A DNA stretch of 64,000 nt from a virus. Made by a program: the position numbers and the translations under genes. The DNA is taken from the IMG/VR virus record IMGVR_UViG_3300030103_005357, positions 32,001 to 96,000 of that record; one strand, given 5' to 3'. Positions 1 through 53,548 of the stretch are shown piece after piece. The notes under the pieces are model-generated. The model was not told the DNA's origin and searched no databases. It was given only the letters and a program-made list of their open reading frames with translations. The stretch's first letter is position 1. Each line of letters starts with the position of its first letter.

Positions 1-1949
1 AATCGGAAGTTTTTTCTCTTGAATCTAAGCCTTCAGAAGAGTTTTTAGACTTACTCAAGACATCTATGGGGAATGAGCCTTCTGGATTCTTATCTGAGTA
101 CTGCGTGAATCTTAATGATCAAGCTAAGCAAGAAAATCAAGTCCCTATAACCTCAAGAGATGAGGAGATAGATAGTTTGATTGAGATTTTGTCAAAAAAG
201 AATAAAAGTAATGCTGTATTACTGGGAGATTCGGGAGTTGGTAAAACAGCAATTGCTGAAGGGCTAGCTCAAAAAATAGTTAGGGATGAAGTTCCAGCCC
301 ATATCAGCTTGTGTACCGTATACAGCGTTGATATGGCATCTATGGTAGCTGGCACTCAATACAGAGGTCAGTTTGAGGAGAGATTCAAAGGCTTACTGAA
401 AGATGTCGAATCTCACCCTGAAGTAATCTTATTTATTGATGAAATTCATACCTTGATGGGCGCTGGTAACTCCAGCGAGAACGGTATAGACGCTTCAAAT
501 ATGCTCAAACCTGCTCTTGCCAGAGGGGACGTTAAATGCATAGGGGCTACAACCTTCAAAGAGTACGAAAAGTCTTTTGGGAAAGACCCCGCTCTTAAAA
601 GAAGGTTCGATAAGGTCGAGGTAAAAGAGCCAACAAAAGACCAAACGCATCTTATGATTAATAATAGTATTTCATACTATGAAAATTTTCATAGAGTTAA
701 ATACTCAAGAAAAAACATTCAAGATATATTAGATCTTAGCGAAATCTATTTATCGAATAAGAAGTTTCCTGAGAAAGCTTTTGATATTATCGACCAAGTT
801 GGAGCTAAAGCAAAAATCGATCAGGACTACCCCACTGAAGGCTTGGTTAATATTAGAGAAAGGTTTTCTACAAAGGGCAAAGATTCAGACACTGAGGAAG
901 AATCAGGAAGATTAATTAAAGAATACATTAAAGATTTAGTCTCTTATATAGATAAAGAAGACAAGAAAAGAAAAGTTTCAAGGAATCATATTCTTGAGGT
1001 TTTCGAAAAAAAGACGGGCATACCTAAAAAAATAATTGGAGAAAGTAACAAATCTTTTTCTAATTTTAAAAAGAAGATGCGGTCAGAAATATTTGGGCAA
1101 GAGGAAGCTTTAGATAGAATTTACAACATCCTCTCTTCTGTAAAGGTGGGACTAAACGATCCAAATAAACCTTTGGCTAACTTCCTATTTGTCGGCCCAA
1201 CTAGCGTTGGCAAGACATTTACAGCCAAGAATATTTCCAAACACTTTTTTGGTAACAAGAATTCATTCCTTCAAATCAATATGAGTGAATACCAAGATAA
1301 GACTGGCATCTCTAAATTGCTTGGAGCAAATGCTGGCTATGTTGGCCATGAAGATGGGGGAATCCTAAGTGAATTTGTTATAGATAATCCAAACTCTGTT
1401 ATTTTGTTTGATGAGATTGAGAAGTGTGATCCCAAAATTCTAGATCTACTCCTGCATCTACTCGACGAAGGTTACATCTCAGACAGCTTCAATAGACGTA
1501 TTGACTTCTCAAAATGCATTATTGTGATGACAACAAACATTGGCCACAAAGAAGCCACAAAAAACACAATGGGGTTTATGTCTGAAAATAATGAGCAGGA
1601 TTCTTATAAAGAAAGTTTGAGTAAATATCTACGACCAGAGCTAATAGCTAGAATACAAAATACCTTAATCTTCAATACGCTAAATGATGAGATTATGGCG
1701 AATATTGTGGGTGTAGAAATAAAAAAGATTAAAAATCGTTTATCTGACAAAGGCATTAATCTTTCTGTTCCCAAGGCAATCCAGAAGTTTCTAGTTGAGG
1801 AAATTAAAGCTAAAAAACTAAATGCTAGGAACATAAAAGCTCTAGTTGTGAAGCTAATTCAGTTTCCATTAGCCTCATTTATGATGGATGAAGAAAAAAA
1901 TAAGAAATTATCACTAAAAATTGTTGACAAAACCATCAAAGTTTACTAA
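1..1949 (+). CDS. ClpA/ClpB/ClpC-family double AAA+ ATPase, 5'-truncated by the window edge
   Basis: Two Walker A motifs (GDSGVGKT, GPTSVGKT), Walker B (LFIDEIH, LFDEIEK), pore loops GTQYRG and GYVG, MGF loop; frame is open from position 3. Confidence 0.92.
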   Translation, partial: SEVFSLESKPSEEFLDLLKTSMGNEPSGFLSEYCVNLNDQAKQENQVPITSRDEEIDSLIEILSKKNKSNAVLLGDSGVGKTAIAEGLAQKIVRDEVPAHISLCTVYSVDMASMVAGTQYRGQFEERFKGLLKDVESHPEVILFIDEIHTLMGAGNSSENGIDASNMLKPALARGDVKCIGATTFKEYEKSFGKDPALKRRFDKVEVKEPTKDQTHLMINNSISYYENFHRVKYSRKNIQDILDLSEIYLSNKKFPEKAFDIIDQVGAKAKIDQDYPTEGLVNIRERFSTKGKDSDTEEESGRLIKEYIKDLVSYIDKEDKKRKVSRNHILEVFEKKTGIPKKIIGESNKSFSNFKKKMRSEIFGQEEALDRIYNILSSVKVGLNDPNKPLANFLFVGPTSVGKTFTAKNISKHFFGNKNSFLQINMSEYQDKTGISKLLGANAGYVGHEDGGILSEFVIDNPNSVILFDEIEKCDPKILDLLLHLLDEGYISDSFNRRIDFSKCIIVMTTNIGHKEATKNTMGFMSENNEQDSYKESLSKYLRPELIARIQNTLIFNTLNDEIMANIVGVEIKKIKNRLSDKGINLSVPKAIQKFLVEEIKAKKLNARNIKALVVKLIQFPLASFMMDEEKNKKLSLKIVDKTIKVY

Positions 1950-9571: not shown

Positions 9572-9766
9572 ATGGAAGAAATATTCGACAAAATTTTAGC
9601 GCCCTATATGTCCTCGCTGCCTGAATTTGTAATCGCGGTAATGGGCATAGTCGGGACACTTGCGTTTTTCGCGCCAGAAGATAGCAAGTTAAGTAGATTG
9701 CTTAACAAAATCACTGGAAGATTGTCAAAATTTAAAGACTACTTACTTAAAAAACTTAAAAAATGA
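9572..9766 (+). CDS. small membrane protein (holin-like)
   Basis: One TM helix and a basic C-terminus. Confidence 0.5.
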   Translation: MEEIFDKILAPYMSSLPEFVIAVMGIVGTLAFFAPEDSKLSRLLNKITGRLSKFKDYLLKKLKK

Positions 9767-26021: not shown

Positions 26022-26792
26022 ATGAGATTATCTGATAATGCTAAAGTAGCTTTTCTAAATCTCAGTTTAGATTCCTTCAATCAGAAGCGGATTTGGAAAA
26101 AATTCTTTGATGATGGAGATGAAGAAACCTTCAACCTTTATATCCACTCTAAAAATAAAAAGTGTTCTGTATTCAAAGACTACTTCATTAAGAATACTGT
26201 CCCTACAAAGTGGGGGCAGTTCTCTCTGGTGGAGGCTACTGTAGAGCTAATGAAATCTGCGTTATCAGACGAACAGAATGAATACTTTACACTGATTAGT
26301 GATTCTCACTTACCTTTGTACAGCCTAAATGAGACTGTAGATTCTATAAAGCAAAGATATGACATCTTAACATTCACAAAACACTTTAGTTTTCATACCA
26401 AAGTGAAGAGTCAAAAGATTTTTAAAGAGGGGATCAAAGGCTACGATTTTGGTGAGTATAATGCTGTTTGCCAGTTTTTTGTCTGTCGAAGAAGAGATGT
26501 TGAAATATTTATTGAGACTTTTGAACATTGGTCTCAGTTCTTTGTGAAAGAAAAAGTTGTATTCGCTGATGAGTTTTATTTTTGGGGAGTAGCGAAGCAG
26601 TTGGAGATGGATTTTAAGATGGGTCAAGCAACAACTTATTCTGATTGGAGCTTTAGGAAATTACCTGATGGTAAATTGGAGCGAAACCCAAAAGCTTTCA
26701 TTACATTCAATAAGGCTATGCTTGAAAGCTACAGAAACCAAGGCTTCTTGTATGCTAGGAAAGTAATGCCAAGCACTTTAATAACATTTTGA
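26022..26792 (+). CDS. core-2/I-branching (GT14-like) glycosyltransferase
   Basis: YIH, TKWGQFSLVEA, LISDSHLPL, DEFYF and YARK motifs. Confidence 0.8.
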   Translation: MRLSDNAKVAFLNLSLDSFNQKRIWKKFFDDGDEETFNLYIHSKNKKCSVFKDYFIKNTVPTKWGQFSLVEATVELMKSALSDEQNEYFTLISDSHLPLYSLNETVDSIKQRYDILTFTKHFSFHTKVKSQKIFKEGIKGYDFGEYNAVCQFFVCRRRDVEIFIETFEHWSQFFVKEKVVFADEFYFWGVAKQLEMDFKMGQATTYSDWSFRKLPDGKLERNPKAFITFNKAMLESYRNQGFLYARKVMPSTLITF

Positions 26793-26801
26793 TTTAAAAA
26801 C

Positions 26802-27419
26802 ATGAAAAATACAGTAGAATTACTTGGGTATTATGGATCTGATGAGGTCATCGCTTGTAGCGCATGGACTTCAACAAGTAGAGAGTTAGATGAAAAGAAA
26901 AGAGAGAGAATTCCGAAGCTCATCGACATGCTTTGGAGTAACGGACATGAGACACCCTTTGAGAAGGGCAGCGTACACTTTCTTGTTGATTGTGATATTG
27001 CCAGTCATATACATTTGCTTAAACATAGGATTTCTTCGCTCAATGCTGAATCGGCTCGCTACAAAGAGCTTAAAGAAAATAAAATGTTTATTCCTGAAGA
27101 TTGGCCAGCATTTTGGCAGAGGGTCTTAGAAGAGTATACCGAAGACGGAAATAGGCTTTACCATAAATGTATTGCTGATCTTGAGCCAGAGTTAGGTCGC
27201 AAACGAGCAAAAGAATCCGCACGGTTCTTTAAGACTTACAATAGTCGCATTCAAGCAGACGTTCAATTCAACATGAGAAGCTTTGCTAACTTCCTAAAAC
27301 TTAGGAATAGCGAACACGCTCAAAAAGAAATAAGAGAAATTGCTCAAAAAATGCTTGACTTGGTTGAGAATATCGAAGAAAATCCGTTCAGACATACCTT
27401 AAATAGTTGGGGTTATTAA
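26802..27419 (+). CDS. thyX: FAD-dependent thymidylate synthase
   Basis: GHETPFE, KHRISSLNAESARY, NMRSFANFLKLR and HAQKEIR. Confidence 0.9.
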   Translation: MKNTVELLGYYGSDEVIACSAWTSTSRELDEKKRERIPKLIDMLWSNGHETPFEKGSVHFLVDCDIASHIHLLKHRISSLNAESARYKELKENKMFIPEDWPAFWQRVLEEYTEDGNRLYHKCIADLEPELGRKRAKESARFFKTYNSRIQADVQFNMRSFANFLKLRNSEHAQKEIREIAQKMLDLVENIEENPFRHTLNSWGY

Positions 27420-27422
27420 ATT

Positions 27423-27656
27423 ATGCAAATTAAAAAAATTGAACTTCGCTCTCTTCAGCAAGTTCGCACTTACGAGTTGGAGGACGGAGATATCATTGAT
27501 AACTTTGGTTCTATAGAAAGATTCCAGAAGATCCTTGATGATTCCGAACAACCTACAGAGGAGGAAAATGAAATGTTATCTAACATTCTGAGCGATTGTC
27601 CAATAGAGGAAGACAATATTATGGGTGATATTGAAGAGTCGTTTTTTGAATATTAA
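27423..27656 (+). CDS. acidic hypothetical protein
   Basis: 77-aa ORF. Confidence 0.5.
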   Translation: MQIKKIELRSLQQVRTYELEDGDIIDNFGSIERFQKILDDSEQPTEEENEMLSNILSDCPIEEDNIMGDIEESFFEY

Positions 27657-27732
27657 AGATTAAAAATGGATACTGAAGCGCTCGCTTTATTAATCGCACT
27701 TATTGCAATGTTAGTATTGCTCATTCAATGTT

Positions 27733-28458
27733 TTGATGGCTAAAAATTCGTATATGAATGATCTTATCAATCTTTTCCGTCAGGAAACTCAGCGGCCCAT
27801 TCTATTTTATAGAATACCAAAAAATGCCAGCACAAGCATTTATAATCATATTGGTCATTTTAATATCGTTAAGCAGTATTACAAAAAGGTATTTGATAAC
27901 GCTGATCAAGAAGTTTATTACAATTGGTTCTGCCCTTCTCACAGTACGCCTGAAGAGTTGTGTGAAACAATTGAGGAGAAAATGGGAAATTGCATAAGAT
28001 TTTGTGTCATTAGAAACCCTTGGGATAGAATGGTTTCCTCTTTTAACCAAAATAGAAAGATTCAAAGTTGGAAATTAACTGGTCACAAACCTAATATGAG
28101 CTTCAAAGAGTTCTGTTCGTTGATCCATGAAAACAAAAATAATAAGAAGTTTCTAGGTTCTAGACCCCAGATCGAATGGGCTTGTGGTAAATACCCTCCT
28201 CATGAAATATTAAGGTTTGAAAACCTAAAATCTGATTTCGCTGCAATGGTTGAGAAATACAAATTAAAAGGATTCTCTAAAGAGTTGCCTCATCAGAATA
28301 AAACCGATCACCCTCATTTTTCTGAATGTTACGACTCAGAATCAAAAGAAATGATTGAGGATGTATTTTTGCAAGATATTAAAAAGTTTAATTATTCTTT
28401 CCCAGAAGATTCTGATTTTTCAAATCCCAAGGGATCAGAAGGTTTTTTAAGAATATAA
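27733..28458 (+). CDS. sulfotransferase family 2 protein
   Basis: IPKNASTS (5'-PSB loop) and RNPWDRMVS (3'-PB). Confidence 0.85.
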   Translation: MMAKNSYMNDLINLFRQETQRPILFYRIPKNASTSIYNHIGHFNIVKQYYKKVFDNADQEVYYNWFCPSHSTPEELCETIEEKMGNCIRFCVIRNPWDRMVSSFNQNRKIQSWKLTGHKPNMSFKEFCSLIHENKNNKKFLGSRPQIEWACGKYPPHEILRFENLKSDFAAMVEKYKLKGFSKELPHQNKTDHPHFSECYDSESKEMIEDVFLQDIKKFNYSFPEDSDFSNPKGSEGFLRI

Positions 28459-28654
28459 CATAAGATTAATGAAGATAAAGAAAAAGAAATTAATTAAATA
28501 CCTCAAAGAATGGGCCAAGGCCAGCGCGAGAGACGCTGAAGTTTACAGCGAGGACGGCGATTACGCACGGGCTTACGAGGCCATTATTATTGCGGATTTC
28601 ATGAAGGACGATCTCATTAAGGGTATTGATTATGATTTCAATAATGAGTAATAC

Positions 28655-28903
28655 ATGATGAATAAAAAATTAATAAAAATGGATGGCTACGATGACTGTA
28701 TTGTCGGGGTAGTAGAGAGGGCTGGTCAAGAACCGATTCTCTGTTACGACAAAGAAGAAGTGCTTCACAAGCTAGAATCCCAAGGCATGAATAGAGACGA
28801 GGCAGAAGAGTTTTTTTATTTTAATCAAATAGGAACGTGGATGGGTGACTCTACACCATGTTTTTTATCAAAAGAGCTTGACAAAGACGAGCTTCTATCT
28901 TAG
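28655..28903 (+). CDS. conserved phage hypothetical protein
   Basis: DGYDDCIVG...YD..EA.EFF.FN..G.WMG..TP pattern. Confidence 0.6.
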   Translation: MMNKKLIKMDGYDDCIVGVVERAGQEPILCYDKEEVLHKLESQGMNRDEAEEFFYFNQIGTWMGDSTPCFLSKELDKDELLS

Positions 28904-29348
28904 AGTACTGAAATCAAAGAAAGAAAAAATGAAAACACAATTATTCTTAGCTGTATCACTAACGCTTTGTGCGCTTGCCACTTGGACTTCCTTTAAGACT
29001 CCTGAAGTTAAAACGGTAATTCAAGAGGAGATTATTTATCCAGAAAAAGTTGAGGCTTGCGTGTCTCTCACCAAGTTTCAACTGGAGAAAATGCTTAGTC
29101 ATTTTAATGAAGACGATCACCCTTCCGAAATGAAGCGTTTTAAAAGTTTGGTTAAGAAAGATGTGAATGGTTGGAGAATCTCTTCAACTCATTTAGCTAA
29201 AGGCGCAGATGATTATCCACTTCCAGACGGTGATTTCCTAGTTGTTGATGCCTCGTTTATTGATTATCATGGGAATTTCAAAGATTGTATCACCTACGCT
29301 CACAGCTATCAAGATAATCACGAATATATTGTGGTATCAGTCAAGTAA
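28845..29348 (+). CDS. hypothetical exported protein; true start probably MKTQLFL
   Basis: Signal-peptide-like segment. Confidence 0.5.
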   Translation: MTLHHVFYQKSLTKTSFYLRVLKSKKEKMKTQLFLAVSLTLCALATWTSFKTPEVKTVIQEEIIYPEKVEACVSLTKFQLEKMLSHFNEDDHPSEMKRFKSLVKKDVNGWRISSTHLAKGADDYPLPDGDFLVVDASFIDYHGNFKDCITYAHSYQDNHEYIVVSVK

Positions 29349-29353
29349 ATTTA

Positions 29354-29436
29354 GGCTCTGTGGCGGAATTGGTAGACGCTGCGGATTTAAAATCCGTTGA
29401 TCCTAGATCGTGAGGGTTCGATCCCCTCCAGAGCTA
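29354..29436 (+). tRNA. tRNA-Leu(TAA)
   Basis: GGCTCTG/CAGAGCT acceptor, anticodon loop TTTAAAA, long variable arm, TTCGATC T loop; CCA not encoded. Confidence 0.9.
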
Positions 29437-29451
29437 TTATCACTTTATTGT

Positions 29452-29673
29452 ATGGAGAATCTTAAAAGAGAGTCTGGTAAGTGGGTCGTAACCTTTGGCA
29501 AATATAAAAATTGTTGTTTAAAAAAAGTTCCCACCCATTACCTTGAATGGGTTCTTAAAAATTTTAAAGATTTATCTATTAAGGAATTGAATGTTATTAG
29601 AGGGACCGTTTCAGGTAGGAAAGGACAAATTAAAAAGCACAAAAAAAATAAGACCCGTTCGTCTAATGGTTAG
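29452..29673 (+). CDS. small protein with FGKYK...VP..YLEW motif (ExoX C-terminal/DUF3820-like)
   Basis: Motif recognition; ATG at 29452. Confidence 0.5.
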   Translation: MENLKRESGKWVVTFGKYKNCCLKKVPTHYLEWVLKNFKDLSIKELNVIRGTVSGRKGQIKKHKKNKTRSSNG

Positions 29674-29726
29674 GACTCCAGATTTTCATTCTGGCAATAG
29701 GGGTTCGATCCCCCTACGGGTTGCCA
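29652..29726 (+). tRNA. tRNA-Glu(TTC)
   Basis: GACCCGT/ACGGGTT acceptor, CCAGA-TTTTCAT-TCTGG anticodon arm, encoded CCA. Confidence 0.92.
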
Positions 29727-29748
29727 ACTTTAAAAAAACTAATAAAAA

Positions 29749-30111
29749 ATGAGACTAAGTAAAGCATTATTTACACTTGTAGCCTTAGTAATTTTAATAA
29801 CACCAGCAATAGGGGAGACAAAATATACTTCAATAATGACTGGAGTATCAGTTGGCAAAGGTAGAGTTCATATCTGGGAGGTATTGACAAAAACATTTAA
29901 GGCATCTCAAATCCGTATCAAAAAAGGAGAAGAGCGTAAGCCTGTTAGATGGGCTACAATTCCGAGCTATGTGACCGTAACGTTTACATCTAAAGATAAG
30001 ACGATTACAAGAACGAAAGTAGATAAAGCACTCAACATACTGAATTTTTCAGGTACTCCATACCTTGTATGGACGGTAAAGAAAGAAGAGCAAAAAATTA
30101 ATAAAAAATAA
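29749..30111 (+). CDS. hypothetical exported protein
   Basis: N-terminal signal peptide. Confidence 0.55.
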   Translation: MRLSKALFTLVALVILITPAIGETKYTSIMTGVSVGKGRVHIWEVLTKTFKASQIRIKKGEERKPVRWATIPSYVTVTFTSKDKTITRTKVDKALNILNFSGTPYLVWTVKKEEQKINKK

Positions 30112-30112
30112 T

Positions 30113-30316
30113 ATGAATGCACATTTAAAAGCAATTAAGAAAAAGCACGAAGCTCTTGGAGATATCGCCAGAGCAGATCTAGAAACCTATTTGAATAATC
30201 AAGTAGCTATCGGAGAACATCCTGATCTGGGCGTAGAAATCGAAAAGAAAGTAGAAACTATCGCTCATCATAATGAAGTAGTTGAAACAATTAATGATCT
30301 TATTTCAGGTCATTAA
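30113..30316 (+). CDS. hypothetical phage protein
   Basis: YL...VAIGEHPD motif. Confidence 0.6.
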   Translation: MNAHLKAIKKKHEALGDIARADLETYLNNQVAIGEHPDLGVEIEKKVETIAHHNEVVETINDLISGH

Positions 30317-30325
30317 TATATTTAA

Positions 30326-30401
30326 GCGCTTGTAGCTCAGTGGTTAGAGCAGGGGTCTCATAAACCCTTGGCCGTGAGTTCAAATCTCACCGAGCGCACC
30401 A
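30326..30401 (+). tRNA. tRNA with CAT anticodon (Ile2-like or elongator Met)
   Basis: GCGCTTG/CGAGCGC acceptor, GGGGT-CTCATAA-ACCCT, encoded CCA; paired 1:72, so not an initiator. Confidence 0.9.
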
Positions 30402-30442
30402 TTTTTAATTAGATAAATTTATATACGAAGGTATAATCAATT

Positions 30443-31552
30443 ATGAAACCTGTTTCTCTTCACTGCTCTAAACAAATTGATGACCTTCTAGATGAATCTA
30501 TGACTATGGAGGCTAACGGCAAGGTGTTCGCCTCTCAAGATCATGCAGGCCCCGCTTACGTTAGGAACCCTGACTTATGGTGTAGAGATCTAGATATTAC
30601 ATGTGTGTCTCCTTGGAATAGTAGTGGTGATCATAAGAAAGCGGGAACACTAGTGACCCCAAGGCATATCATAGGTGCAGCACACTACGAGTATTCTGTG
30701 GGGACAGTGGTTAGGTTTGTAGAGAAAAACGGTTCAGTGCATGAACGAACTGTAACAGGAAAAGCTCGCCATCCCGAATGTAGACGTTACTTTCCAGACT
30801 TAACAATATATACTTTAGACAGCGACCTCCCCTCTACGATAAAACCTTGTTCTGTAATGCCTAGTAATTACAGTGAATATTTAGATAACTTTAGCAGGAT
30901 ACCTAGCCTTGGTCTTGATCAAGAAGAGAAAGCTCTCATAATAGATTGGCGAGCTGGAGGTAGGATGCAGACACCCGCAGATCCGAAAAGGCTTATTTTT
31001 CATGAGAATAAAATCAGTGGTGATAGCGGGAATCCTGCATTTTTAATATTCAAAGGTGAGCCTGTTCTTATAACTGTTTGGACATTTGGTGGTGCAGGGG
31101 CTGGGACTGCTGTAGCAGATCATATTTCAGATATTAATGGTATGATTGCTACCGCTGACACACGGGCAGGTGTATCGACAAACTATACAGTTACTGAAGC
31201 GGATTTTTCAACATACGATAACAAAGTCTTCGATGCTAAAAAACTTTTTTCTCAATTCGTTGCTGCACTTCGTAAGTTAAGACCTCGGTGGTTTAAGAAA
31301 AGTCCCGAAACCAGCGCCGAAACCAGTGCCGAAACCAGCGCCGAAACCAGTGCCGAAACGAGTGCTGAATATAGTAGCTCTGAGCCACCTTGGGATACGA
31401 GTGCTGAATGCACTTCTAGTGCGGAATGCACTAGCGCGGAATGCACTCATCCCGAATGCACTAGCGCAGACCAAGCATCTCATTCTTTCCATGTGCAAAA
31501 CTGGAATGAGACGAGTGCAGAATACACTAGCGCCGAGACCAGTGCCGAATAA
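30443..31552 (+). CDS. trypsin-like serine protease with low-complexity repeat tail
   Basis: GTLVTPRHIIGAAH (His), PDL (Asp), GDSGNP (Ser). Confidence 0.75.
   Translation: MKPVSLHCSKQIDDLLDESMTMEANGKVFASQDHAGPAYVRNPDLWCRDLDITCVSPWNSSGDHKKAGTLVTPRHIIGAAHYEYSVGTVVRFVEKNGSVHERTVTGKARHPECRRYFPDLTIYTLDSDLPSTIKPCSVMPSNYSEYLDNFSRIPSLGLDQEEKALIIDWRAGGRMQTPADPKRLIFHENKISGDSGNPAFLIFKGEPVLITVWTFGGAGAGTAVADHISDINGMIATADTRAGVSTNYTVTEADFSTYDNKVFDAKKLFSQFVAALRKLRPRWFKKSPETSAETSAETSAETSAETSAEYSSSEPPWDTSAECTSSAECTSAECTHPECTSADQASHSFHVQNWNETSAEYTSAETSAE
31307..31549 (+). repeat. 12-bp tandem repeat GAAACCAGYGCC (ETSA) x5 plus degenerate copies
   Basis: Five copies at 31307-31366, decayed copies to 31549. Confidence 0.9.
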
Positions 31553-31609
31553 AGGTAATATAAAATTATTTTAAATAATAAAAATAGTAGTAATTAATCT
31601 TTTAACTAC

Positions 31610-32224
31610 ATGGAAAGTAAAATCAACACTAATACAATTAATACATTTGCAATAATTCTATCTTGTGAAAAATATAAAGACAAAAAACTCTCCCAAGATA
31701 CCACTAGGCTTGGGGATCATATGTACTTCATAGGGAATCCTCAATTATCTTCCCCTATGATTGAAGGTGATGTTGTCTATTTACCTTGCCCAGACAATTA
31801 TGAGAGCTTACCTATTAAAACTTTAATGGCTGTTAAGTGGGCTTTTGAAAATAAAGATTTTGACTTATTGATAAAAACAGATGATGATGTTTACTTCTTA
31901 GATGGTTTTGATGAAATCGTTAATGAGGCATCTGTCCATGATTATTCTGGTTTTCTGAGAAGTGGTGGTTATATGTCTAATTGGCACTTTGGTAAATGCG
32001 AGAATCAAGAATTAAATAATTTACCTCACGCCGTTCCAGAAGTAGTATATTGTGATGGCCCATTATACTTCTTGTCTAGAAAATCTGCTGCCCATTTAGT
32101 AAATCATGGGATTAGAAGAAATTTATATATGTATGAAGATGCAGAGGTTGGAGAGTTATTAAGAAGGTCTGGAATTATTGCAAGGCAAATCCAAATTAAG
32201 TACGGGGTTTATTGGCCGAAATAA
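31610..32224 (+). CDS. GT31 galactosyltransferase-like protein
   Basis: DNYESLPIKT, KTDDDVY, G..YFLS and EDAEVG motifs. Confidence 0.8.
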   Translation: MESKINTNTINTFAIILSCEKYKDKKLSQDTTRLGDHMYFIGNPQLSSPMIEGDVVYLPCPDNYESLPIKTLMAVKWAFENKDFDLLIKTDDDVYFLDGFDEIVNEASVHDYSGFLRSGGYMSNWHFGKCENQELNNLPHAVPEVVYCDGPLYFLSRKSAAHLVNHGIRRNLYMYEDAEVGELLRRSGIIARQIQIKYGVYWPK

Positions 32225-32894
32225 TCTTGAATCACATAACGTGATACCTCAAAAATTACATCAAGTTTGGTTAGGTCATAATCACATACCTGAAGAATTT
32301 GTAAAGTTTACAAGTAACTGGAGGAAGCTGCATCCTGACTGGCAATATAAATTATGGACAGAGGAGACCATATCAAACAAACCACAAATTAAAAACTTGG
32401 TTGATAAGTGCGAGGCGTTTTCATCTAAATCAAATGTAGTTAGATTATATGCGGTTTACTTGGAGGGTGGAGTTTATGCAGACATGGACATTGATTGGTT
32501 CCGCAACTTTGATGAACTATTAAATGTTAATTCCTTTGCATCGCCCGAAACAAATAAGACTAATAAAGAATTAGGACTTAAAGATTTTCACATAAATTAC
32601 TCTAAACTATTTTGCAATGCAATTTTCGGTGCGGTTACTAAAAGTGAGTGGGTAAATTGGCAAATAAAACAATTATCTGAGATGGTATCTGAGAAGCCGC
32701 CTTGGGGTCCAACCTTAATGACCAATGCTGTTGAGGCATTTAAAAATACGAATGATTTTCAAGAATACCCATCAACGTATTTTTATCCATATTTTTGGAA
32801 TGAAGAATATACAAAGTCTGAAGATTTTAAAAATAAAAATAAAGAGTCATATGTAGTCCATCATTGGGAAAGTTCGTGGGATCAAAAAAAATAA
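32178..32894 (+). CDS. GT32 (OCH1-like) DXD glycosyltransferase
   Basis: IPQKLHQVW, HPDWQYKLW, GGVYADMD, WGP and HHWESSW. Confidence 0.85.
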   Translation: MQGKSKLSTGFIGRNNLESHNVIPQKLHQVWLGHNHIPEEFVKFTSNWRKLHPDWQYKLWTEETISNKPQIKNLVDKCEAFSSKSNVVRLYAVYLEGGVYADMDIDWFRNFDELLNVNSFASPETNKTNKELGLKDFHINYSKLFCNAIFGAVTKSEWVNWQIKQLSEMVSEKPPWGPTLMTNAVEAFKNTNDFQEYPSTYFYPYFWNEEYTKSEDFKNKNKESYVVHHWESSWDQKK

Positions 32895-33460
32895 CAATCA
32901 TGATTTTTAAAGCGCGAAATAAAATAGTACAATATTGTCCAACCCCAAAATGCGGTTGTACATCAACTAAAGTGATGATCCGCAAAGGGATAGAAGGTAT
33001 TATTGATTATCAAAATAATATTCACGCTAGATTTAGCACAAAGACATTTAAAGCGGTAGATGCGGATATTAAATTTTGTATAGTCAGAGATCCTGTGAGT
33101 AGGTTTTTGTCATGCTATACAAACAGAATTTGCCGACATCACGATATTGAATTTGTAGAACTCGATGAGTTTATTAACAATTTTCATGATAAATACTATA
33201 GATTAGATAAAAATATGCATCATCATTTTCGACCACAGGTTGATTTTATAGGCCATTGCCCTAGCTACTATAATAAAGTCTTTTATTTGCATGAAATGTC
33301 TTTAGTGTCGCAATTCTTAAGTGAAATCATGGGGAAGTCAATAAAATTAGAAAAACTAAATCCCGTTCAGGCAGAAAAACCAATCCCAACTGAAAGCCAA
33401 ATTGATTTCATAAAGTCGTTTTACGAAGATGATTATAAATTTTTGGACAAGATAAAGTAA
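32864..33460 (+). CDS. sulfotransferase family 2 protein
   Basis: PKCGCTS, VRDPVSRFLS and HFRPQ. Confidence 0.8.
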   Translation: MGKFVGSKKITIMIFKARNKIVQYCPTPKCGCTSTKVMIRKGIEGIIDYQNNIHARFSTKTFKAVDADIKFCIVRDPVSRFLSCYTNRICRHHDIEFVELDEFINNFHDKYYRLDKNMHHHFRPQVDFIGHCPSYYNKVFYLHEMSLVSQFLSEIMGKSIKLEKLNPVQAEKPIPTESQIDFIKSFYEDDYKFLDKIK

Positions 33461-33519: not shown

Positions 33520-34152
33520 ATGAAATTTAAAGGAAAAACCGATATCGTTAAAGAAGTCCAAGGTAAACTTGGCCTTAAAGCTGACGGGATTGATGGCCCT
33601 GCTACATGGAAGATGATTTGGGAGAATCTAGTTCATGATGATAAAGGTGAACCAGAAAAGCCAGAGCCTCCAGCTCAAGAACTTAAAGATGATTACCCTG
33701 AAGTTTACAAAGCGTCACCAAACCAGTCTGGACCCATCAAACCTAAGTATGTGATTCTGCATCATAGCAGTGGAAGTCATGATGGGACTCGTTCATGGAT
33801 TTTAAATTCTGCGTCTAAGGTTAGTTATCACTATCTTATTGCGCCTGATGGATCTCGCACACAATTTGTTTATGATAAAAAAAGAGCTTGGCATGCTGGG
33901 AGATCTTCTTGGAAAGGTGTAAGCGGTCTAAATGGTCATAGTATCGGCATTTCTTTCTATGGGGATACCAACAAACGCACACCAAGTGCTGCTGAAATTG
34001 ATTCCGCTGCCAAGAAATGCAAATACCTTATGGATAAATTTGGTTTTGGTATTGACAATATTCTGACGCATGAGATGATTGCCCCCAACAGAAAGAATGA
34101 TACTTCTGCTGCTACCTACCAAATGGTTATTGATCGCATAAAGGATCTTTAA
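33520..34152 (+). CDS. N-acetylmuramoyl-L-alanine amidase endolysin with peptidoglycan-binding domain
   Basis: ADGIDGPAT; ILHHS, SYHY, AWHAG, SIGI, THE..AP.RK.D. Confidence 0.9.
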   Translation: MKFKGKTDIVKEVQGKLGLKADGIDGPATWKMIWENLVHDDKGEPEKPEPPAQELKDDYPEVYKASPNQSGPIKPKYVILHHSSGSHDGTRSWILNSASKVSYHYLIAPDGSRTQFVYDKKRAWHAGRSSWKGVSGLNGHSIGISFYGDTNKRTPSAAEIDSAAKKCKYLMDKFGFGIDNILTHEMIAPNRKNDTSAATYQMVIDRIKDL

Positions 34153-34722: not shown

Positions 34723-35397
34723 ATGGCCCTCAAGGACGATTACCTCATAAAGAAGATAACATACCAAGATGCGATGGAAATCGTCGTGAATAAGCATTAT
34801 ATGGGTAGAAAAGGCCCATGTAGTCATGCTTTTGGTTTATTTGAGAGGGGTACATCACATGAGCAACTAGATCTTTTTGATAATAACAAAGATAAGCTTG
34901 TAGGAGTCATTACATATGGGGTTAGTGCTAGCTCTACTCTTTTAAGAGGTGTTTGCGGTGAAGAAGAAGCTAAAAATGTTTATGAACTTACCCGTTTGTG
35001 GATTGAAGATAGCACACCAAAGAATGCAGAAAGCTTTTTTATTGGTAATACTATCAAGACATTAGACAGAGAGGTCATTGTTTCTTTCTCTGAGATAGCT
35101 CAAGGGCATGTTGGAACAGTTTATCAGGCATCAAATTTCTTTTATTGTGGTCTTAGTGCTAAGTTTAGAGATCCCAAAGTAAAAGGGCTAGAGAATAAAC
35201 ATCATACAAGCTATGCTCACGGGATGAATATGGCTCAAGTCAGAGAAAAATATGGTGCGGAGAACGTCTATTATGTTGACAGACCTCGCAAACATCGTTA
35301 CGTTTTCTTTAACGCTAAGAAGAAAAGACGTAAAGAACTACTTGGTAAACTAAATTACAAAATAGAGCCTTACCCAAAAAGCCCAGATCGAGCGTGA
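34723..35397 (+). CDS. Mom-like GNAT DNA base-modification enzyme
   Basis: HY, GVITYG, ELTRLW, KNAES, GHVGTVYQASNF.Y.G and KHRY. Confidence 0.75.
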   Translation: MALKDDYLIKKITYQDAMEIVVNKHYMGRKGPCSHAFGLFERGTSHEQLDLFDNNKDKLVGVITYGVSASSTLLRGVCGEEEAKNVYELTRLWIEDSTPKNAESFFIGNTIKTLDREVIVSFSEIAQGHVGTVYQASNFFYCGLSAKFRDPKVKGLENKHHTSYAHGMNMAQVREKYGAENVYYVDRPRKHRYVFFNAKKKRRKELLGKLNYKIEPYPKSPDRA

Positions 35398-47662: not shown

Positions 47663-47801
47663 TGGTCGCTCTAAAAGGACTTGCACCTTTATCTTTCTCG
47701 CCCGAACCATTGGGGTTGCGGTGACTTTCTCGCCGAGATTATCATCGAGCGTGTTATTGAAGAGGTCGTGGAGATTGTCTTGCTTGTTAGACTATAGAGC
47801 T
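47663..47801 (-). ncRNA. tRNA-like RNA with a 71-nt structured insert in place of the anticodon loop
   Basis: GCTCTA/TAGAGC acceptor plus ACCA, GTCT/AGAC D stem, AAAGG-TGCAAGT-CCTTT T arm; own TTGTCC-17-TATAAT promoter. Confidence 0.7.
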
Positions 47802-47857
47802 TTCTTACGGGGGAGATTATAAGTGATTTGGGGGATGGGGACAAGCCCTTTTTTAAT

Positions 47858-49368: not shown

Positions 49369-49485
49369 GGGGATATTATAAACGGAAATCTCACAAAAGA
49401 AAAGCTTTTTCTGCATAAAAAAGAAACTTTTTTTTCGATTAAAAGTGTTGACACGATGGCTTGTTTTGGTATGGGAAAAACCTTC

Positions 49486-49562
49486 GTAAGTCGTTGATAC
49501 TCAGTGAGTTACGGGCGGCGGCGGGGCGCTTCGCCGTAACTCGTTGATACTCAGTGAGTTAC
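49486..49562. repeat. 77-bp element, copy 9 (core R)
   Basis: GTAAGTCGTTGATACTCAGTGAGTTAC-GGGCGGCGGCGGGGCGCTTCGCC-GTAACTCGTTGATACTCAGTGAGTTAC. Confidence 0.95.
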
Positions 49563-49610
49563 AGCGATTCTTTTCATAACATAAAAACTCAACGTGTCAA
49601 GTATTTTTTT

Positions 49611-49676
49611 TGGTGGATGGCGGGGGGATCGAACCCCCATCCGAGACTCGCATCCCGTCGAAACCATTGGCCACCC
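49611..49676 (-). ncRNA. minimal tmRNA-like RNA (tRNA-like domain only)
   Basis: GGGTGGC-CAATGGTTTCGAC-GGGAT-GCGA-GTCTC-GGAT-GGGGG-TTCGATC-CCCCC-GCCATCC-A-CCA; G3:U70 pair, no D stem. Confidence 0.8.
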
Positions 49677-49683
49677 AAACTTT

Positions 49684-49908
49684 TTACTTGCCGTAAATCG
49701 AGCGGAGTTCCCAACTCGCTTCGTTCACTATTTCCGCAGTCACGCTTTGCGGATTCTTGCACGCTTCGGGAAGACCTTTGCGAATGATTCGCTTCAACTT
49801 ACGCGCACGCATCCACTCCCCAATGTGATGAGGGAAGAGAATGGGGTAGGTAAGAATCAAGATAGCTTTCCCCATTGGGGATTGATATTTAAAATTGTGG
49901 AGGTTCAT
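49684..49908 (-). CDS. hypothetical protein
   Basis: ATG at 49908, downstream of 49916-50098. Confidence 0.5.
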   Translation of the reverse strand: MNLHNFKYQSPMGKAILILTYPILFPHHIGEWMRARKLKRIIRKGLPEACKNPQSVTAEIVNEASWELRSIYGK

Positions 49909-50098: not shown

Positions 50099-50107
50099 GT
50101 GTGTATT

Positions 50108-50275
50108 CTACTTGTTTTCTTTTTTAAGGTCAAGGAACCATTCCTCTTGTTCTTTCTGGAACTCTTGGCATTCCCTGATGAACTGCTCTCCGACTTCGAC
50201 GGTTCTGTCCACCATCTTGTTCCAATTTTCTTCGGCTTTGGCCATTGCTGCTAGTGCTTCTTCGGTTGCTGTCAT
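50108..50275 (-). CDS. 55-aa helical protein, paralog B (MTATEEALAAMAKAEENWNKMVDR...)
   Basis: TTGTAT-17-TAGAAT-6-ATG; not in the ORF track. Confidence 0.75.
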   Translation of the reverse strand: MTATEEALAAMAKAEENWNKMVDRTVEVGEQFIRECQEFQKEQEEWFLDLKKENK

Positions 50276-52547: not shown

Positions 52548-52871
52548 ATGAGTCACATATTTTGTTATAGTTGTGGGGTTAAGATTGAATATAATTTTGC
52601 TAAACCTAATTTTTGTTCTAAATGTGGGGCAAGTTTTGGAGGGACGCAGCAATCTCAAGCTGCGGTGGAACAGGTTTCCAATCAAACCAAATCCTCTGTA
52701 GTTTCAGATGACGAAACCGACGCAGAGTTCGTCCCACAACTGCGGGGATTGCAGGTAGAAATTGAAAAGCCTAAAACTGTCACCATTGGTTCTTTAGCGG
52801 GTCAAAACACACCACCTGACTATAAAGGAAAGGGATCGTATGACCTGAATGATTTCACTTCTAAACCTTAA
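52548..52871 (+). CDS. zinc-ribbon protein
   Basis: CYSCG...PNFCSKCG. Confidence 0.7.
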   Translation: MSHIFCYSCGVKIEYNFAKPNFCSKCGASFGGTQQSQAAVEQVSNQTKSSVVSDDETDAEFVPQLRGLQVEIEKPKTVTIGSLAGQNTPPDYKGKGSYDLNDFTSKP

Positions 52872-53548
52872 TGCCCGAAGAGAAGAAGTATGAAGACTAC
52901 CAAGACATCATAGATCGAGCAGTTAAGAAGCAGAGGTCAAGGTGGCGTTTAGATGCTATCAAGTGGTTTGACTTCGAAGATGTTGAGCAGGTGGTAAAAT
53001 CACACATCGCCCAAAAGTGGCACATGTGGGATCAGTCGCGTCCATTGGAGCCGTGGCTTAGTCGTGTAATCACCAATAGGATGTGGAATCTTATAAGAAA
53101 CCATTATGGATCTTATATCAAACCTTGTTCAACATGCATACATGCACGGGATGAATTGTGCGCTAAGACCGTAAGTGGTAACCAAGATATTTCGTGCAAA
53201 GATTATGCTAAATGGTCAAAGAAGAAAAAATTTGGACTAGAATTGAAAACTGCATCTAGTCTAGATGATACTGAGCATGTTATAAACGTTAAGTGTAATT
53301 CGTATTTTGATTATGATGCTGATACGCAGAAGCTTAACGAGAAAATGCTAAAAAAACTTGGAGAGAAACAATACGGGGCATATCATATGTTATATTTCGA
53401 GGATTGTACAGAAGAAGATGTAGCAAAGTATATGGGGTATAAACTGTCTGATACTAATCGTAAGATTGGCTACAGACAAGTAAAGAATCTCAAATGTAAA
53501 TTTCATAAGATTGCAGTAAAAATTTTAAAAGATGGAGGAGATTTGTAA
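52871..53548 (+). CDS. phage sigma70-family (ECF-like) factor
   Basis: Region 2 (FEDVEQ...WDQSRPLEPWLSRVITNRMWNLIR) and region 4 HTH (EEDVAKYMG). Confidence 0.7.
   Translation: MPEEKKYEDYQDIIDRAVKKQRSRWRLDAIKWFDFEDVEQVVKSHIAQKWHMWDQSRPLEPWLSRVITNRMWNLIRNHYGSYIKPCSTCIHARDELCAKTVSGNQDISCKDYAKWSKKKKFGLELKTASSLDDTEHVINVKCNSYFDYDADTQKLNEKMLKKLGEKQYGAYHMLYFEDCTEEDVAKYMGYKLSDTNRKIGYRQVKNLKCKFHKIAVKILKDGGDL

Follow-up and report, generated by a model that had tools for sequence, protein, structure and literature searches.

The 66 nt at positions 49611–49676 on the minus strand of the window (the whole 64,000-nt stretch of viral DNA analyzed here) are, on sequence grounds, the tRNA-like domain (TLD) of a tmRNA, carried by a phage without the mRNA-like domain. 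A 7-bp acceptor stem with a G3:U70 pair, a discriminator A, an encoded CCA, a D-loop analogue and a T arm all lie at exactly this location and on this strand, as the original prediction had said. The parts of the gene are assigned as follows.

49611–49676 (−): mini-tmRNA gene, TLD only; 66 nt, 65% G+C (RF00023 match and conservation in the family)
49670–49676 (−): acceptor stem 5′ strand GGGUGGC, pairing 7/7 with 49615–49621
49658–49669 (−): stemless D-loop analogue ending UUUCGA, aligned to the Rfam consensus GGaUUCGAC and to E. coli ssrA
49642–49657 (−): helix 2, 6 bp including two wobble pairs, with GNRA tetraloop GCGA (fold, Rfam alignment)
49639–49641 (−): GAU linker (comparison with E. 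coli ssrA)
49622–49638 (−): T arm, 5-bp stem GGGGG/CCCCC and loop UUCGAUC (fold, Rfam alignment)
49611–49621 (−): acceptor 3′ strand GCCAUCC, discriminator A and encoded CCA (sequence, Rfam alignment)

Structure of the RNA

Numbered along the RNA, the acceptor strands occupy positions 1–7 and 56–62 and are followed by A63 and by the CCA at 64–66. The partner of G3, read from the sequence, is U60, which is position 70 in tRNA numbering, and a uridine, U(−1), lies directly 5′ to G1. Positions 8–19 form the unpaired D-loop analogue, stemless and with the conserved UUCGAC sequence, which is invariant across the family (21 sequences); in solved complexes of tmRNA TLDs this region is contacted by SmpB. 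Helix 2 is formed by positions 20–25 with 30–35, the pairs being in order C:G, G:C, G•U, G:C, A:U and U•G, and is closed by the GCGA tetraloop at 26–29. The cap is that originally described, but the helix is longer than the 5 bp then assigned, having six pairs once C20:G35 is counted. By analogy with E. coli ssrA (GAC/GGAC), a tandem of G•A pairs, G18•A37 and A19•G36, lies below it and completes the likeness to helix 2a. The GAU linker occupies positions 36–38, and the T stem (39–43 with 51–55) and T loop (44–50) complete the domain. In tmRNA it is G3:U70 and A73 that are recognized by alanyl-tRNA synthetase (AlaRS), the acceptor and T helix that are bound by EF-Tu, and the D-loop and helix 2a that are bound by SmpB.

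The minimum free energy fold comprises all three helices, though with an energy that is nothing unusual (z = −0.60), so that significance comes from the covariance model and from conservation and not from fold energy. The G+C content of the gene (65%) compares with 38–46% in the surrounding region.

Scanning with the Rfam models identified the locus as tmRNA (RF00023) at 47.6 bits, with E values of 1e-15 for the whole window and 4e-17 for 2.5 kb. This exceeds the gathering score of 47 by just 0.6 bits, and two variants within the family fall below that cut-off at 43.5 bits. RF00023 ranks above the other families of the same clan at 49611–49676, and the tmRNA identity that had been put forward was borne out by Infernal in this way. 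The match runs over model positions 1–374, where 4 nt stand in place of 312 internal positions. Those four nucleotides are all that lies between the strands of helix 2, the tetraloop taking the place of the pseudoknots PK1–PK4 and of the tag reading frame. Because the tetraloop closes helix 2, there is no resume codon, tag frame or pseudoknot in the molecule, and the stop codon is likewise absent; the predicted 66-nt RNA lacking pseudoknots and tag ORF is what we find. Compared with the one-piece SsrA represented by RF00023, it is a tmRNA without PK1, resume codon, tag ORF, stop codon and PK2–PK4, and since everything between the strands of helix 2a is missing it cannot template a degradation tag.

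Two other assignments were considered and rejected. An ordinary tRNA (RF00005) would require a D stem, which is lacking, and the sole internal hairpin has a loop of 4 nt and not a 7-nt anticodon loop. The prediction that the element would not prove to be a common tRNA agrees with ARAGORN, which called neither a tRNA nor a tmRNA at 49611–49676, while the tmRNA model was the best of its clan. A two-piece permuted tmRNA is at variance with the standard order of the segments and the hairpin-closed domain, and the window contains no match to a permuted family at E ≤ 10.

Conservation within the close family

A pattern scan of IMG/VR found 20 contigs carrying essentially the same gene. When these loci and the window were aligned together with 400-nt flanks, variation was found in just 3 of the 66 columns of the RNA, compared with 10–20 columns per 22 nt in the flanks (21 sequences). 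All three variable columns fall inside the hairpin of helix 2. U25 to C converts a U•G pair into C:G; G28 to A, in the loop, converts GCGA into GCAA and so keeps the GNRA character; U33 to G, the commonest variant, turns the G22•U33 wobble into a G•G mismatch and is the sole change that does not suit helix 2. The original prediction regarded the clean cap as selected and not as a product of decay, and 63 of 66 columns invariant in 21 genomes with diverging flanks uphold it.

The family divides into two sub-lineages. They differ by an indel of ~130 nt immediately after the CCA, and the products of the 74-aa ORF upstream of the RNA are about 64% identical between them; the RNAs are 95–100% identical, with at most three positions differing. 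A further relative is the complete 140-kb genome G012, whose capsid-region protein is 71% identical and which carries a 69-nt version of the RNA. This shares the unusual U4:A69 acceptor pair with the window RNA. Its helix 2 has a wholly different sequence, 8 bp with a UUUA loop, and is still paired. Another complete relative is without a TLD-only gene, so the gene is accessory within this phage group. Comparative analysis of these loci shows that the small-RNA gene of this large tailed phage, which is marine and uncultured, is functional, and the pattern of substitution places the gene under strong purifying selection.

Phages often integrate in ssrA and carry off its 3′ end (PMC4131195, PMC9004378), and the RNA could in principle be a non-functional remnant, either of an ssrA that was captured and is decaying or of an attP-type piece that remained after integration into the ssrA of a host. 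We regard this as most improbable. An attP fragment is a 3′ part lying beside an integrase; here the 5′ and 3′ halves are both present and precisely joined, and no integrase was found among window ORFs of ≥150 aa or among the recurrent neighbors of the wider class (in the matches listed). The RNA is moreover far better conserved than its flanks, and its helices are maintained by covariation. The observation that had been named in advance as evidence of an attP-type remnant was therefore not made.

Genomic neighborhood and expression

The features that neighbor the RNA gene are listed below.

49684–49908 (−): 74-aa ORF, MNLHNFK...IYGK-stop, with a hydrophobic segment (translations across 20 loci)
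50105–50133 (−): candidate sigma-70-like promoter TTGACC-17-TAGAAT, upstream of the ORF/RNA unit (consensus scan alone)
49595–49600 (−): TTGACA motif, beginning 11 nt past the CCA; conserved
49485–49562 (−): 77-bp double-palindrome element, two 28-nt copies 50 nt apart, bounding the cassette downstream

The stop codon of the 74-aa ORF, whose product has no match in Pfam or PHROG, is just 7 nt ahead of the start of the RNA, and in G012 the RNA begins 1 nt after the stop codon of an ORF. The ORF and the RNA are probably co-transcribed. On the 3′ side the order is an A-run, then the conserved TTGACA, then the double palindrome, and no intrinsic terminator was called between the RNA and the TTGACA motif. 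The sequence ACTTGACAC is kept in both sub-lineages despite the ~130-nt indel that in one of them separates the motif from the RNA, and TTGACA probably serves the next leftward unit as its −35 element. With a stop codon 7 nt upstream and no terminator, the RNA appears to close a short transcription unit that runs leftward, and it would need processing of the tRNA type.

The 77-bp element consists of imperfect palindromes around a GC-rich spacer, and is kept in relatives with changes in both arms. It sits near a TGTCAA/TTGACA motif, and it appears to be a repeated element with a boundary or regulatory role in a leftward array of gene cassettes.

Contigs from RNA libraries in two studies cover the gene (X18, 49407–49678; X20, 49520–49669), where carry-over of DNA is possible; they give a weak hint of expression. 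Metatranscriptomes of the same samples contained almost none of the sampled words.

The phage and its other genes

The window encodes lambda-J-like and minor tail proteins, a large terminase, an endolysin, an amidase, PhoH, ThyX and Mom, together with a ClpA/B-like double AAA+ ATPase, many glycosyl- and sulfotransferases and three tRNAs. No close relative at the DNA level was found among 50,697 GenBank phage records, in which the nearest large terminases, from phages of Bacillus and Clostridium, are 22–30% identical. The capsid-region protein has >410 relatives in IMG/VR, and the locus was found in marine metagenomes from a dozen studies. Taken together, these observations indicate an abundant group of uncultured marine phages.

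Attempts to find a clue to the host from the RNA were set aside. BLAST of the 66 nt against five genomes did not discriminate, and a search with the 5′-end pattern through ~1,000 genomes in three phylum samples gave mostly chance matches; one recurrent string proved to be positions 3–22 of an ordinary ssrA of the GGGGGUG type.

Several other genes of the window deserve mention in their own right. At 66–1949 (+) lies a ClpA/ClpB-type double AAA+ ATPase of 627 aa, with AAA, AAA_lid_9, AAA_2 and ClpB_D2-small domains, which matches the PHROG 'ATP-dependent protease' at E 3e-197 and has counterparts in 29 viral contigs (53–97% identity). Since proteins that carry the ssrA tag are handled by Clp unfoldases, the ATPase is notable in a phage that also has a mimic of trans-translation. 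A cluster of glycan-modifying genes at 26022–33460 (+) includes Branch/GT14-like, Galactosyl_T/GT31-like and Gly_transf_sug genes and two of the Sulfotransfer_2 type. ThyX is at 26802–27419, Amidase_2 at 33520–34152 and the Mom family protein at 34723–35397. The ORF at 52871–53548 (+) has a weak match to Sigma70_r2 (E 9e-4, below cut-off) and is possibly a phage sigma factor.

TLD-only RNAs in other viruses

How widespread are RNAs of this kind? We ran two relaxed pattern scans of viral sequences, in which TTCGAC had to lie within 8–38 nt of the T loop and one of which added the U70-C71-C72-A73 end, and matches were kept if all 7 acceptor pairs and all 5 T-stem pairs could form and both G3:U70 and A73 were present. 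At least 108 further viral loci with the same architecture passed, comprising at least 94 unique RNAs. The family of the window is counted on top of these, its T loop (UUCGAUC) being outside the scan pattern; with it there are at least 71 RNA lineages (about 70 in round terms), and at least 129 viral contigs in all carry TLD-only tmRNAs. The RNAs fall into size classes of 62–68 nt (12 unique) and 76–84 nt (81 unique), with one of 72 nt, among the matches listed, where CCA is encoded in 33 of 108 loci. In a scan of bacterial genomes for the same architecture, the family of the window was not among the matches listed.

The complete pairing of the acceptor and T stems in this set is a product of the filter, and the constancy of the UUCGAC core, which was part of the search pattern, is likewise not independent evidence. 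The evidence lies in the diversity of pair types and in helix 2 alone, which was not part of the filter. Counting pairs from fixed sequence anchors in the 96 TLD-only RNAs among the matches listed, helix 2 is 94% paired, compared with 29–48% when the partners are slid by 1–2 nt, and six pair types occur at most of its positions. The covariation sought among phage homologues is therefore strong in this helix. Positions 4–7 of the acceptor stem and 1–3 of the T stem each show 3–6 pair types, while G1:C72 and G2:C71 are invariant in the 96 (matches listed). The linker is GAC or GAU in 84 of the 96 class members listed.

Two features bear on whether these RNAs belong to trans-translation at all. 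The GA of the 3′ GGA, which was not selected for, is kept in 91 of the 96 RNAs listed, and G3:U70 was present in 22 of 22 RNAs of a first, smaller set where it had not been required. Decoys that resemble tRNA are an established theme in the contest between phages and defenses that target tRNA, and the mini-tmRNA might be a tRNA mimic acting outside trans-translation, whether as a decoy for a host defense enzyme that attacks the acceptor ends of tRNA or tmRNA or as a mere processing signal for RNase P. The latter would suit the position of the RNA so soon after a stop codon (7 nt in the window, 1 nt in G012), where an RNase P cut would set the end of the mRNA. But neither a processing signal nor a generic decoy has need of the tmRNA-specific UUCGAC/GGA core or of G3:U70, and we doubt such readings strongly.

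Clustering of 3,992 neighboring ORFs from the 129 loci gave families that were each confined to 8 or fewer of the 71 lineages among the matches listed. The leading families were terminase, portal, capsid, prohead protease, Endo VII and ERF; integrase, SmpB, release-factor-like proteins and CCA-adding enzymes were not among them (129 loci, matches listed). In L313, L288, L360, L365 and others, which are unrelated lineages, the TLD-only gene is not part of a tRNA cluster but lies within ~100–700 nt of genes for head morphogenesis (major capsid, prohead protease, portal, terminase).

Some further observations arose from these scans. L012 and L014 are complete 130-kb phage contigs with an 81-nt TLD-only tmRNA, and each also has a Pistol ribozyme, at L012:13302–13377 (−) and L014:1621–1716 (+), scoring 69.6 and 54.8 bits against an Rfam cut-off of 34.5. 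An 81-nt RNA identical to that of L014 is found in L119 (G010, 1.4 Mb), which is filed as a bacterial genome; L119 may hold a prophage or be a phage contig that was binned wrongly, or else it points to the host of the L014 lineage. Dozens of contigs from Eremiobacterota/'Cybelea' soil MAGs (loci L033–L108) match TTCGACGGG...GGGTTCGA with a fixed 43-nt span, often in several copies per contig. These elements fail the acceptor-stem test and are a repeated tRNA-like element.

Relation to known tmRNAs

A TLD-only tmRNA in a phage is a published kind of molecule, to which the present analysis adds evidence of spread in phages and of two size classes. The entry 'Mycobacterium phage DS6A (TLD only)' appears in a list by Hudson, Lau and Williams (2014; PMC4131195), and a 2025 paper on the tmRNA database repeats the point and adds CDS-less plastid genes of ~65 bp (PMC11915505). 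The original prediction that the only tmRNAs lacking an mRNA-like domain are mitochondrial was accordingly wrong. Within the part of the literature that we covered, such breadth is not described, DS6A being the single phage case.

We confirmed the DS6A gene (tmRNA Website tmID 11587) at JN698994.1 28478–28560, an 83-nt match of 43.2 bits to RF00023 with a deleted-middle alignment. Both it and the window RNA (47.6 bits) are phage-encoded and match the two ends of RF00023 with the mRNA-like domain deleted, and both have G3:U70, A73, the UCGAC core and a 5-bp T stem, with no tag frame; each gene lies just downstream of a small ORF. The window RNA has the other attributes of this type, namely both halves of the TLD in standard order, a short hairpin joint and a tmRNA score with a deleted middle, and it lies outside any ssrA integration site, in a window with tail, terminase, endolysin and PhoH genes. 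They differ in that DS6A RNA, at 83 nt, belongs to the ~80-nt size class, its helix 2 is longer and ends in an AAA-CCGC...GCGG hairpin, and its CCA is not encoded (it has ACUA), whereas the 66-nt window RNA has a 6-bp helix 2 with a GNRA cap and encodes its CCA. DS6A is a temperate phage of actinobacteria, while the window derives from a large marine phage without a cultured relative.

The TLD of E. coli ssrA is nearly superimposable on the window RNA, with its G3:U70 acceptor, GGNUUCGACGGGAU as 5′ segment, UCGGA as 3′ segment, T arm and ACCA. In the alignment two stretches match almost base for base, GG-UUCGACGGGAU from the 5′ half and UCGGA-N-T arm-acceptor-ACCA from the 3′ half.

The CDS-less organellar tmRNAs of jakobid mitochondria and Mallomonadaceae plastids (PMC11915505) are like the window RNA in size, in being TLD-only and in their presumed SmpB partner. 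They have however descended vertically from bacterial ssrA by reduction, while the window RNA is a phage gene in a genome with no SmpB detected. Two-piece tmRNAs, found in Alphaproteobacteria, some cyanobacteria and marine phages such as Melnitz (PMC9004378), have a separate small acceptor piece, and they show that tmRNA genes are carried by marine phages. In permuted tmRNA genes the 3′ acceptor and T-arm piece precedes the coding piece and the tag frame is kept, in contrast to the standard order and hairpin closure seen here.

Does the RNA act alone?

If a separately encoded tag-coding RNA worked with the TLD, either in trans or by base pairing, the two would amount to a split tmRNA. There is room for a second piece, since about 40 kb of the genome lie outside the window and the 48-kb relatives are about 35% complete (CheckV). 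We nevertheless consider it very unlikely. The tetraloop-closed helix 2 leaves no free strand for a partner, and no other match to the tmRNA clan was found in the 64-kb window at E ≤ 10, with the reservation that a tag-coding RNA on its own may escape the Rfam model. Searches of five phage records, related or analogous and including two complete genomes (130 kb, with the 81-nt version), found neither SmpB (PF01668) nor a second tmRNA piece. The complete genomes G004, G005 (130 kb) and G012 (140 kb) have TLD-only genes with no second piece, the TLD of G012 standing alone.

Two candidate partners within the window were rejected. The lone tag-like peptide at 9589–9624 (+) is out of frame inside a small ORF (9572–9766) and has no tmRNA-like structure. 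A tRNA-shaped element at 47663–47845 (−), with acceptor-like ends and ACCA, a T-arm-like hairpin and a long insert, has C3:G70, no tag frame and a fold z of +0.18. For proteins, tblastn with E. coli SmpB gave nothing better than E 1.6 in the window. The negatives from neighbors and from whole records together argue against an attP origin, against an obligatory protein partner encoded nearby and, with the reservation just given and for the ~60% of the genome that the 64-kb window covers, against a split tmRNA.

Function

Taken as a whole, the observations are best explained by a decoy for SmpB and the ribosome that can be charged with alanine and that damps tagging in the host; from its sequence and by analogy with a related molecule, we judge this on balance probable. 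The RNA would be transcribed together with the 74-aa ORF just upstream. Cleavage by RNase P at G1 would generate its 5′ end, and the 3′ side would be trimmed to the encoded CCA. The mini-tmRNA would then be charged with alanine by the AlaRS of the host and bound by host SmpB and, unable to supply a message, would compete with host tmRNA for SmpB in a dominant-negative manner, as it possibly would for EF-Tu and stalled ribosomes. As a result ssrA tagging and trans-translation would be lowered during infection. The reading is based on the retention of the AlaRS, EF-Tu and SmpB parts with the removal of all the parts that resume translation.

Such a decoy is the only reading for which there may be said to be experimental precedent, by extension from a related molecule in E. 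coli. In the account given in PMC4131195, from which we know the work of Mao et al. (2009), a molecule similar to that of DS6A strongly inhibits tmRNA in E. coli, whether it is chargeable or not, and titration of SmpB was proposed as perhaps the cause (PMC4131195). What a phage would gain from blocking ribosome rescue is not obvious, and this counts against a decoy.

The main rival is rescue without a tag. The alanine-charged RNA with SmpB would accept the nascent chain on a stalled ribosome, adding one alanine and no ssrA degron, and release would then follow via ArfA/RF2 or ArfB of the host or by a further round of rescue. We think this rather unlikely, though several points speak for it: G3:U70, A73, CCA, the T arm and the SmpB-type D-loop are all intact and invariant, organelles that have kept SmpB still possess CDS-less tmRNAs (PMC11915505), and in several lineages the gene is beside the heavily translated capsid, prohead protease and portal genes. 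The difficulty is that with no resume codon the ribosome would be again without a message after transfer. No release-factor-like or hydrolase neighbor recurs, families being found in at most 8 of 71 lineages (matches listed), and the reported inhibition by a non-chargeable version, as relayed in PMC4131195, fits titration better.

Extending the decoy proposal to the class as a whole is more tentative. TLD-only tmRNAs may be a widespread phage device against host trans-translation, maintained in many separate lineages, of which the 66-nt form would be close to a minimal AlaRS/SmpB/EF-Tu module; we hold this as a possibility somewhat short of a probability.

Nearly all bacteria have trans-translation, which is a target for drugs, and to our knowledge the way in which phages handle it is largely unknown. 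An RNA of 66 nt that has the AlaRS, SmpB and EF-Tu elements alone is a ready probe of what SmpB and the ribosome need from tmRNA, and is a candidate natural inhibitor of ribosome rescue. The finding of TLD-only RNAs in at least 129 viral contigs suggests that they are common in uncultured phages and, if they inhibit or re-route rescue, phage control of trans-translation would be general and not a curiosity.
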